From Gemmatimonadota bacterium (GTDB lineage: Bacteria > Gemmatimonadota > Gemmatimonadetes > Palauibacterales > Palauibacteraceae), in contig OY762926.1 in the NCBI GenBank assembly GCA_963666735.1, positions 1,216,001 to 1,280,000 of the forward strand: a stretch of 64,000 nt of DNA, read 5' to 3'. Shown here piece by piece: positions 31,905 to 32,099 of this stretch. Position numbers and translations under genes: made by a program. The notes beneath the pieces are model-generated. The model did not search any database. It was not told the origin of the DNA and was given only the letters and a program-made list of their open reading frames with translations. How positions within the stretch are numbered: the first letter of the stretch is position 1; every line of letters begins with the position of its first letter.

Positions 31905-32000
31905 CTGCTTCGGCAGCCCCATTGAAGGTGGTTCTTGGCAGGTACGGCAGATGCCCTGCCAGCGTCCTCCGGAGCTTCGTGACTCCGGCCTCTGACGCGC
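31905..32000 (+). CRISPR. Cryptic one-spacer mini-array (crRNA-like regulatory RNA, CreA/CreR-like)
   Basis: Pseudo-repeat 1 CTGC-TTCG-GCAG-CCCC-ATTGAAGG; 36-nt spacer 31929-31964; pseudo-repeat 2 TCCT-CCGGAG-N8-CTCCGG-CCTC; main repeat is CTTT-CCGGGG-N8-CCCCGG-CCTC-ATTGAAGC. Confidence 0.82.
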
Positions 32001-32099
32001 GGTGTAGTTTAACAGGAGAGAACACCCGGGGATTCGAAAGAGCTCGCCTCTCTTAGGCAGCCACCCCAGGAGATGTGGGTTCGAGTCCCACCGCCGCAG
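31998..32099 (+). ncRNA. tRNA-like RNA with expanded anticodon arm, no encoded CCA
   Basis: Acceptor CGCGGTG/CGCCGCA, U8-A9, D stem GTTT/GAAC with GG loop, T arm GTGGG-TTCGAGT-CCCAC; anticodon stem encloses about 32 nt instead of 7. Confidence 0.78.

Follow-up and report, generated by a model that had tools for sequence, protein, structure and literature searches.

Self-targeting mini-CRISPRs (CRISPR: short palindromic repeats, clustered and regularly interspaced) that regulate or guard cas genes are a recent discovery, and the repertoire of cargo known from them is small. According to the survey texts, guides of the CreR/CreA type have been noted for subtype I-U, now I-G (10.1101/2023.03.10.532045; PMC10120712). 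The known CreT cargoes are described in PMC8501985 as RNAs with a mini-open reading frame (mini-ORF) which sequester rare transfer RNAs (tRNAs) or initiation components. Furthermore, the Haloferax work presented in PMC4326828 describes tRNA-like t-elements which are cut by RNase P and tRNase Z to give working CRISPR RNA (crRNA), and a natural t-element which makes the 5' end of 5S ribosomal RNA. Here we analyzed a stretch of 64,000 nt from a Gemmatimonadota bacterium (contig OY762926.1, positions 1,216,001 to 1,280,000), here referred to as the window, whose coordinates are used throughout; the genome is named G000. By the run labels and the source names given for close Csb1 relatives, this is a Palauibacter-like bacterium of sponge metagenomes. 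The window contains, between a mini-CRISPR and the first gene of a type I-G cas operon, a tRNA-like element of 102 nt (31998..32099, + strand). On sequence evidence it is probably a tRNA-derived structured RNA of the leader transcript of this operon. We tentatively favour the reading that RNase P and RNase Z excise the co-transcribed element and separate the guide from the cas messenger RNA (mRNA).

The element is located 5 nt 3' of the degenerate mini-CRISPR (31905-31992) and 75 nt 5' of csb1 (cas7g; 32175..33428, +). Pseudo-repeat 1 (31905..31928, +) comprises a small hairpin, the motif CCCC and an 8-nt end resembling a 5' handle, ATTGAAGG, which agrees in 7 of 8 positions with the end of the array repeat, ATTGAAGC. 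It is followed by a spacer-like guide segment of 35 nt (31929..31963, +), equal in length to the spacing of the array. Pseudo-repeat 2 (31964..31992, +) is 3'-handle-like with a 6-bp hairpin and then CCTC (31989-31992), and 18 of its 29 positions are those of the array repeat; one pair of the stem is altered on both sides relative to that repeat. When pseudo-repeat 2 is laid on the array repeat, position 1 of the element is set off from the repeat-type cut site by a linker of 5 nt (31993..31997, +), which is the short leader after CCTC that a preliminary description of this DNA had proposed.

The partial target of the guide lies just 5' of pseudo-repeat 1 (31879..31898, - strand), at the location where the promoter of the operon would be expected. 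Its protospacer-like part runs from 31895 down to 31879 and is flanked 5' by TTT (31898-31896). The target starts 34 nt upstream of the guide on the opposite strand, and 15 of the first 17 positions of the guide match it, with mismatches at positions 6 and 9. This is the best partial match of the guide within the window. In a second Gemmatimonadota genome (G300; the locus is here named L129/L132) the guide has its best site 37 nt upstream, again on the opposite strand, with 14 of 17 matches, mismatches at positions 6, 9 and 12 and the flank TTC. Spacers and targets are unlike between G000 and L129 yet matched within each locus. A flanked partial match of this kind is the signature of self-regulating guides of the CreR/CreA type.

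With the CreR/CreA guides, as the cited surveys portray them, the locus shares two degenerate repeats around one spacer-like segment, pseudo-repeat 1 being the one that best preserves the 5' handle and pseudo-repeat 2 the one that best preserves the hairpin. Likewise shared is the partial complementarity to a promoter-proximal site beside effector cas genes, flanked by a protospacer adjacent motif (PAM). In contrast to those guides, seed position 9 is mismatched in both G000 and L129, and guide, tRNA-like RNA and cas genes here appear to form one transcript. Moreover, the term 'tRNA-like' does not occur in the available text of Shmakov et al. (PMC10120712), and the mentions of tRNA found in that text or in that of 10.1101/2023.03.10.532045 concern other things.

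The CreTA system of Halobacterium hubeiense, as described in PMC8501985, is similar in that guide and small RNA cargo share a guide-repressed promoter, as they may do here, and in that the seed skips position 6 (and 12) next to a TTC-like PAM. Unlike the CreT RNAs portrayed there, the candidate cargo of our locus is tRNA-shaped, is located after the guide and not before it, has the cas genes directly downstream and carries no conserved start codon or Shine-Dalgarno sequence. The t-element and icrRNA constructs of Haloferax, in the form given in PMC4326828, resemble our locus by a tRNA-like module beside a crRNA, by ends made by RNase P and tRNase Z and by independence from Cas6. However, those crRNA constructs are man-made and archaeal, whereas the present composite is natural, bacterial, one-sided and equipped with a conserved long arm. 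Polycistronic constructs of tRNA and guide RNA (gRNA) are in use for genome editing. In the mascRNA of MALAT1 and in the tRNAs of the tufB operon, an RNase P cut at a tRNA or tRNA-like module separates two RNAs of one transcript; these cases belong to other organisms and genes, and neither is linked to CRISPR. A full-text literature search, which covered article texts, returned the CreTA/CreR papers and the engineered Haloferax system and yielded no description of a natural tRNA-like element in a cas leader, in agreement with the preliminary description, which knew of no I-G system with this layout. The mini-CRISPR part is already known; new is the tRNA-shaped component within a self-regulating mini-CRISPR module.

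The Rfam tRNA model (RF00005) covers positions 31998-32099 from end to end with 40.1 bits, at a gathering threshold of 29. With E-values of 5e-5 when the whole 64-kb window is searched and 5e-7 for a region of 601 bases, the match exceeds chance. The acceptor stem (31998-32004 with 32092-32098) has 6 of 7 pairs, with C1 opposite A72, and is followed by T8 and A9. The D stem (32007-32010 with 32020-32023) has all 4 pairs and a 9-nt loop that holds GG. The variable region has 4 nt, and the T arm (32075-32091) has 5 of 5 pairs with the loop TTCGAGT. The discriminator is G at 32099. No CCA is encoded, which is no peculiarity of the element, because none of the 51 tRNA calls made by ARAGORN in this genome encodes CCA either. 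A list of these segments, together with the long stem, rebuilds the sequence from 31998 exactly in a script check, so that the tRNA frame drawn in the preliminary description, including the mismatch C1-A72 and the missing CCA, is present in the sequence.

In place of the anticodon stem-loop the element carries a long arm (32025..32070, +), whose stem covaries among the three loci described below. This stem (32025-32031 with 32064-32070) has 6 of 7 pairs with a single C.A mismatch at 32068, and closes 32 nt. The interior is composed of a 10-nt loop on the 5' side, starting with ATTCGAA, an interrupted hairpin of 7 bp (32042-32061; 3 + 4 pairs) and 2 nt on the 3' side. Where the Rfam model has a loop of 7 nt, 36 nt are inserted. 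Instead of 5 bp closing a loop of 7 nt, as in an anticodon stem, there are 7 bp (8 in L129) closing 32-34 nt, which bears out the earlier statement that this tRNA-derived element cannot decode as it is. The features of an RNase P and RNase Z substrate are present, namely a 7-bp acceptor stem stacked on a 5-bp T stem, a T loop, a leader, a trailer and no CCA.

Two further copies were found. An exact pattern search of 401 genomes of the phylum gave one match outside G000, the one in G300. This copy is the best preserved (L132 15224-15328, - strand; Rfam tRNA 38.8 bits). Its layout is pseudo-repeat 1, a spacer-like segment, a 9-bp hairpin plus 3 nt, the tRNA-like element and csb1, and the final 13 nt of pseudo-repeat 1 are those of its own array repeat (13/13). 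The element combines a fully paired acceptor stem and a canonical D arm with a stem of 8 bp that closes 32 nt; its T arm is that of G000. Its csb1, 76% identical to that of G000, starts 100 nt past the element, the operon is intact, and the array has at least 27 repeats. The order of pseudo-repeat 1, spacer-like segment, pseudo-repeat 2, tRNA-like element and, 75-100 nt further on, csb1 is therefore common to G000 and L129. The third copy belongs to a Bryobacterales locus (L069; L118 is likewise of this genome, G061). It is truncated at its 5' end (L069 1808-1909, + strand), keeps the 3' two thirds of the element and is located 91 nt before csb1. Its homology to L129 runs from the D loop onward and stops upstream of there; the Rfam tRNA model did not report this copy at E-values up to 10. 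Decay is evident in the cas locus of L069, where cas3 is interrupted by a transposase gene of the ISAs1 family and only a truncated cas4/cas1 is left; no array was found within 16 kb. The linkage to the guide and csb1 that had been proposed for the window thus recurs as a composite in two further I-G loci, with compensatory changes in the stems.

To align the copies, a covariance model was built from L129 and L069 only, because MAFFT misaligned the arm of G000; the G000 element was then aligned by Infernal. Standard pairs occupy 88.3% of the cells versus 81.6% in shuffles (2 of 500 shuffles reach 88.3%). Pair changes on both sides number 8, a count reached by 1 of 500 shuffles, and the covariation score is 0.344 versus 0.188, reached by none of 500; these values come from three sequences in a structure-fitted alignment, two of which had built the model. 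When the 3' partners were slid by 1-3 columns as a control, 40-53% of the cells were paired. Comparison of G000 with L129 shows four double-sided changes that preserve pairing: three of them are in the long stem and the fourth is in the D stem. There are also several G-U alternations, and these pair only as RNA of the + strand. For L129, energy minimisation returns exactly the cloverleaf including the long arm, at -47.8 kcal/mol and z -2.65, a stability matched by 2 of 200 shuffles; the arm alone reaches z -2.96, matched by none of 200. Additionally, a natural variant is present in sequencing run X10: over a contig of 259 nt it differs at two positions, which are both located in the arm. By one of these changes the C.A at 32068 becomes C-G, and the cloverleaf of the variant is within 3 kcal/mol of its optimum. 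Judged from these sequences, the shape of the element seems sufficiently preserved for it to look functional.

T arm and 3' acceptor strand together make up 24 nt (32075..32098, +; L069 1885-1908; L132 15225-15248) which are identical in the three loci, although the hosts are distant, while the remainder of the element is about 55% identical. The same 24 nt occur in metagenomic sequences within ordinary tRNA-Met(CAT) and tRNA-Thr(TGT) genes, a YrlA copy and a tRNA-like gene linked to Ro60. At no other site in G061 or G300 were they found, and gene conversion with host tRNAs therefore fails to explain the identity. Neither host tRNA gene conversion nor an attachment site (see below) is supported as an explanation of the 24-nt identity. 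The element as a derivative of host tRNAs was rejected, with just the T arm of tRNA-Thr(TGT) as the best host match and an acceptor stem unlike that of all five tRNA-Arg.

According to the favoured processing reading, a single promoter beneath the partial target of the guide would drive everything from pseudo-repeat 1 through guide, pseudo-repeat 2 and tRNA-like element to csb1 and the genes beyond. Guide-loaded Cascade would occupy this promoter and throttle the whole unit, in the manner of a CreR/CreA-type auto-repressor. RNase P would cut at the 5' end of the element (31998) and RNase Z after the discriminator (32099), as is to be expected because the acceptor/T-arm helix and the elbow of D and T arms are intact. 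These cuts would free the 3' end of the guide a few nt past its hairpin without reliance on Cas6-type cleavage, would detach the guide from the cas mRNA and would release a 102-nt tRNA-like RNA incapable of decoding. The distance from the end of pseudo-repeat 2 to position 1 of the element is 5 nt in G000 and 3 nt in L129, so that the RNase P cut would leave a 3' handle of near-canonical length. The cas mRNA would then begin with a hairpin: the leader between element and csb1 (32100..32174, +) starts with an imperfect long hairpin (fold z-score -1.85), and in L129 and L069 too a hairpin is located at most 8 nt past the element, with leader sequences that are unalignable across loci. Genes for RNase P RNA (251 bits) and RNase Z (343 bits) are present in the host, as is one for a homologue of the CCA enzyme. 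An RNase P/Z handle that separates the guide from the cas mRNA had been one of three possibilities named in the preliminary description; with these enzymes encoded it is the best fit, and we infer the co-transcription, the two cuts and their effect. Simple scans found no sigma-70 consensus promoter, and no terminator-like site between guide and csb1.

Several observations weigh against this reading. A cutting signal alone needs just the acceptor/T-arm helix, so that the conserved long arm with its CGAA loop and the D arm are unexplained by it. Csb2 could itself make the 3' end of the guide, because pseudo-repeat 2 of G000 retains the hairpin and CCTC. The stretch is contained in 18 sequencing runs from 7 studies, none of which is recorded as RNA; the four runs compared with it are contigs, in which no starts, ends or joints are visible. 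The G000 cloverleaf (-32.1 kcal/mol) is surpassed by 7 kcal/mol by an alternative fold in which the insert pairs with the T arm, and its stems carry the two mismatches C1.A72 and C.A. With our own covariance model, 52.5 bits for the G000 element stand against 51.9 bits for an ordinary tRNA-Thr whose T arm is identical; the model cannot separate the element from such tRNAs and is therefore unfit for finding diverged members. Finally, the small basis of the covariation figures has to be kept in mind, and the element was present in only 3 of the 86 csb1 loci examined.

Because a cutting signal has no need of a conserved long arm or D arm, a function of the released RNA as cargo remains a serious rival, even if we consider it unlikely. 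It would then be a CreT-like toxin or decoy that is kept low by Cascade and the guide. Upon loss of Cascade or with an anti-CRISPR, the promoter would open, and the accumulating RNA would tie up a tRNA-handling factor and slow growth. The most specific candidate target is arginyl-tRNA synthetase (ArgRS); others are the CCA enzyme, EF-Tu and modification enzymes. The element would be located on a transcript whose promoter is targeted by the guide, and creT and creA of H. hubeiense are likewise reported to stand under one auto-repressed promoter (PMC8501985). Processing would need neither the long arm nor the D arm, yet both are conserved and show covariation. In L069, whose cas locus is broken, the loss of one block has removed the guide together with the 5' third of the element and left csb1 intact, which is a route of loss that a toxin would allow. 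On the other hand, the CreT RNAs of the cited papers, as far as described there, use a Shine-Dalgarno sequence and a start codon together with a mini-ORF or hairpin, of which none is conserved between G000 and L129. Without Shine-Dalgarno sequence, start codon and mini-ORF the element is not a member of the CreT family, but might work like one. Furthermore, the level of the RNA would climb whenever Cas expression is induced, and with the cas genes directly downstream, plain autoregulation of Cas explains the guide without a toxin. The suggestion that the RNA is a decoy for a tRNA-targeting nuclease such as the HepT of this island gained nothing beyond the presence of a HepT-MNT pair 12 kb away.

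A narrower form of this idea appears rather unlikely to us: an arginine-tRNA mimic, excised by RNase P and RNase Z and set by Cascade, that would block ArgRS or another tRNA-handling factor when the promoter opens. In support of the cargo reading in general as well as of this form, the 5' part of the big loop resembles an arginine anticodon loop in both intact copies (ATTCGAA with UCG in G000, CTACGAA with ACG in L129), the anticodon loops of the host tRNA-Arg being CTTCGGA and CTACGGA. In addition, an A follows G18G19 in both intact copies, a feature that among the true class I tRNAs of the genome only the five tRNA-Arg have. A20, C35 and G36, which the mimic would carry, are the identity set of ArgRS. 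However, relative to an anticodon stem there are 2-3 additional bp, and such a displaced 'anticodon' should hinder recognition by the synthetase.

A neutral relic, that is, a former tRNA gene or mimic carried along with the cassette and with its anticodon loop ruined by an insertion, is in our view quite unlikely. It would agree with the rarity of the element, with the mismatches and the better alternative fold in G000, with the truncation in L069 and with the G000 arm, which alone shows no extra stability compared to shuffles (z -0.46). The csb1 genes of G000, L129, L069 and L045 form one clade (SH-aLRT 99) in a quick maximum-likelihood tree of 81 Csb1 rows, from which L027 (truncated) and one locus below the 350-residue filter were left out, and in L045 no such element is present in the 456 nt before the contig end. 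Against a relic stands the identity of the 3' 24 nt in three phylogenetically distant hosts, when the 5' 34 nt of the frame agree between G000 and L129 in only 19 of 34 positions and the leader is unalignable. Likewise, four stem pairs were altered on both sides and still pair, the L129 arm is stable and the population variant mends a stem mismatch.

That the element is an integration scar or docking site, the 3' end of a tRNA gene having served as attachment site for an integrase of the cas cassette, is very unlikely. Integrases that target tRNA genes usually duplicate the T arm and the 3' acceptor strand, and it is exactly this part that is invariant here; moreover, the cas family is spread over many phyla and the same 24 nt are found in ordinary metagenomic tRNA-Met and tRNA-Thr genes. 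However, no integrase or recombinase domain was found among the scanned ORFs of the window, two overlapping ORFs upstream in L132 and one ORF upstream in L118. There is no direct repeat of the 24 nt: the genome has only the element and a 22-nt match, in a tRNA-Thr located 150 kb off on the other strand. With the guide upstream and the cas genes downstream, the element is inside a functional unit and not at its edge, and its 5' and 3' halves keep pairing via wobble changes, which argues for a constraint at the RNA level.

It is highly improbable that the locus encodes a working arginine tRNA from which about 25 extra nt are removed as an intron. In its favour, the start of the loop looks like a correct anticodon loop (U33, UCG or ACG, A37, A38), A20 is present in the D loop, and both G000 and L129 yield a tRNA call when introns are permitted in ARAGORN; by default the program reports no gene in the window. 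For G000 the forced solution, which we distrust, is a 'tRNA-Ser(cga)' that combines an intron of 6 nt with a long variable arm; the solutions conflict (Ser versus Glu) and cut inside the anticodon. The tRNA-gene check suggested earlier returned nothing beyond forced intron solutions. Self-splicing introns are much longer than the insert. A splicing endonuclease domain (PF01974) was found in none of the three genomes G000, G300 and G061, with four archaeal controls positive, and a bulge-helix-bulge motif was not seen by eye, no formal search having been made. After any removal the stem would still have 7-8 bp, too many for an anticodon at the proper distance from the elbow, and the genome already has tRNA-Arg(TCG) and tRNA-Arg(ACG).

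A Y-RNA-like mimic whose long arm binds a Ro60-type protein is hardly credible and close to refuted: in spite of tRNA-like acceptor, D and T modules with a long helical arm replacing the anticodon loop, as in YrlA (RF02553), and of a 24-nt T-arm/acceptor sequence shared with a YrlA copy of metagenome contig L113, YrlA, which is linked to Ro60, is circularly permuted relative to the element and has its ends in the arm, a TROVE/Ro60 gene is absent from G000, G300 and G061 (0/3, two controls positive), and the Rfam YrlA model does not match the window element at E-values up to 10 (L069: 15 bits, E 4.6). The metagenome contigs which carry the 24-nt end include two that had made this reading worth considering. 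Contig L113 (551-1743) has at least four YrlA copies (37.6-78.3 bits; 62-78 bits for the gene array) interleaved with three ordinary tRNA genes, and one copy carries the 24 nt. In contig L110 a tRNA-like gene (579-712; Rfam tRNA 52.4 bits) with the same 3' end and a 52-nt insert in the anticodon arm is located directly before a Ro60 gene (TROVE + vWA; 740-2209); in contrast to the permuted YrlA, it has the look of a Y-RNA-like tRNA mimic without permutation. The loop of the arm was likened to the Ro-binding strand of YrlA and the likeness rejected, since the strands are topologically different. A tmRNA was rejected as well: the ARAGORN tmRNA search of the region was empty even at a lowered threshold, and the tmRNA of the genome is elsewhere. 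The YrlA and tmRNA matches that the preliminary description had considered worth seeking were thus absent, whereas the Rfam tRNA match was clear.

Three further proposals for the arm were rejected. As a third pseudo-repeat it gave a shuffle p of about 0.02 in one of four cognate comparisons and 0.18-0.93 in the others; the short sequences shared with the own array repeat are GGATTCG in G000 and CGAAT in L129. The insert is no small dispersed hairpin element, being single-copy in the genome. A pairing of the distal hairpin with the ribosome-binding site of csb1 has a 7-nt complement in G000 and nothing comparable in L129.

For the distribution of the element we compared csb1 loci from species-representative genomes. 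A first protein-pattern scan of genome contigs gave no confirmed relative; the alignment-based repeat gave 588 confirmed relatives, of which the best 80 were kept (L027-L106). In the 450 nt upstream of csb1, ARAGORN with introns allowed found a tRNA in none of these 80 loci. Allowing up to 5 substitutions, the 24-nt motif of T arm and acceptor strand occurred in one of 85 loci, L069. Run over the 85 loci, the covariance model returned only two matches: L069 and, in L104, an ordinary tRNA-Lys located roughly 424 nt before csb1. The co-occurrence with csb1, which the preliminary description had proposed to test, thus extends to three loci of one csb1 clade, with covariation, and is offset by 83 other csb1 loci without the element. 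There, an ordinary or intron-containing tRNA found regardless of cas loci had been named as a refuting case. This applies in part: by its score the element is a tRNA bearing an insertion, and ordinary tRNA and Y-RNA-like genes elsewhere share its last 24 nt, but the whole element was found only before csb1.

Searches with shorter probes gave a similar picture. BLAST of a 331-nt region against 61 relatives of G000 found nothing longer than 43 nt outside the own genome, and most of the matches were the 22-nt T arm of tRNA-Thr. The csb1 gene itself is present in 5 of these 61 relatives, own genome included. In G013 (L022 1000-1500) the region upstream of csb1 has given way, together with the first 25 codons of the gene, to an insertion sequence (IS) that encodes an integrase-core transposase. 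In G021 (L023 ~2750-2880, minus strand) a single pseudo-repeat ending in a handle is located about 95 nt before csb1, with neither a second pseudo-repeat nor a tRNA-like element in the locus; it may represent a guide with one repeat. The 24-mer had no match in viral contigs, and BLAST of the element against plasmids and phages gave none. It was found in one of 151 genomes of the family of G300, G300 itself, and a 21-mer in one of 121 genomes of the order of G061, again G061 itself. None of the 8 metagenome matches of the 24-mer has csb1 nearby.

The genes of the operon were assigned by Pfam and NCBIfam. Downstream of csb1, the + strand carries csb2 (33431-35134), cas3g (35109-37946) and a Cas3-extension gene (37943-38872), followed by a csb2-like ORF (38749-39684). 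The CRISPR array (39948-42005, -), cas2 (42220-42513) and cas4/cas1 (42526-44352) come next. Directly after cas4/cas1, a HepT-like RNase and its MNT nucleotidyltransferase partner are encoded (44359-45007, -). Upstream of the mini-CRISPR, the window contains a gene for a protein of 1136 residues (28015-31425) with leucine-rich repeats (LRR), a metallopeptidase-like segment and a weak likeness to Xop-type LRR effectors. An EVE-domain protein is encoded at 22188-23612. Elsewhere in the genome there is a second, distant csb1 (C1:150139-151230, 32% identical), so that two type I-G-like systems are present. ARAGORN also made three odd calls in this genome (C1:2159586-2159668, 3147512-3147608 and 726133-726228), an 83-nt 'tRNA-Met', a 'tRNA-???' with a 4-base anticodon and a 96-nt 'tRNA-Ala', respectively, which resemble false positives or further tRNA-like sequences.

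Some observations concern the Csb1 family as a whole. The best 80 of the 588 relatives are 61-86% identical across many phyla, including two Nitrosopumilaceae archaea, and most of these records are metagenome-assembled genomes associated with sponges. This suggests that one I-G cassette has been spread widely by horizontal transfer in sponge microbiomes. Csb1 proteins of 87-96% identity are also on record. Mobile elements have broken related I-G loci, namely the IS in G013 and the ISAs1-family transposase gene in cas3 of G061 (L118 9719-11578). The motif TGTCACA (L067-L106) is present upstream of csb1 in 22 of the 80 loci, at a distance of 50-170 nt in most and nearly all in an Actinomycetota branch; it could be a regulator site or promoter element replacing the mini-CRISPR there.

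The composite is rare, with three loci in one csb1 clade. If the processing reading is true, it would be a natural guide-tRNA fusion, a trick that engineers use in the Haloferax icrRNA and in tRNA-gRNA arrays, and Cas6-independent maturation via RNase P and RNase Z would have evolved in nature too. The three loci also supply a compact unit of about 300 nt, comprising promoter, guide and tRNA-like RNA, which is clonable and directly testable. The conserved long arm and the arginine-tRNA features point to possible tRNA mimicry as an effector under CRISPR control. Should the arginine-mimic reading be true, the RNA would make its host addicted to the type I-G system, or serve as an abortive back-up for it, and among toxins of the CreTA (type VIII) kind it would be the first that mimics a tRNA.

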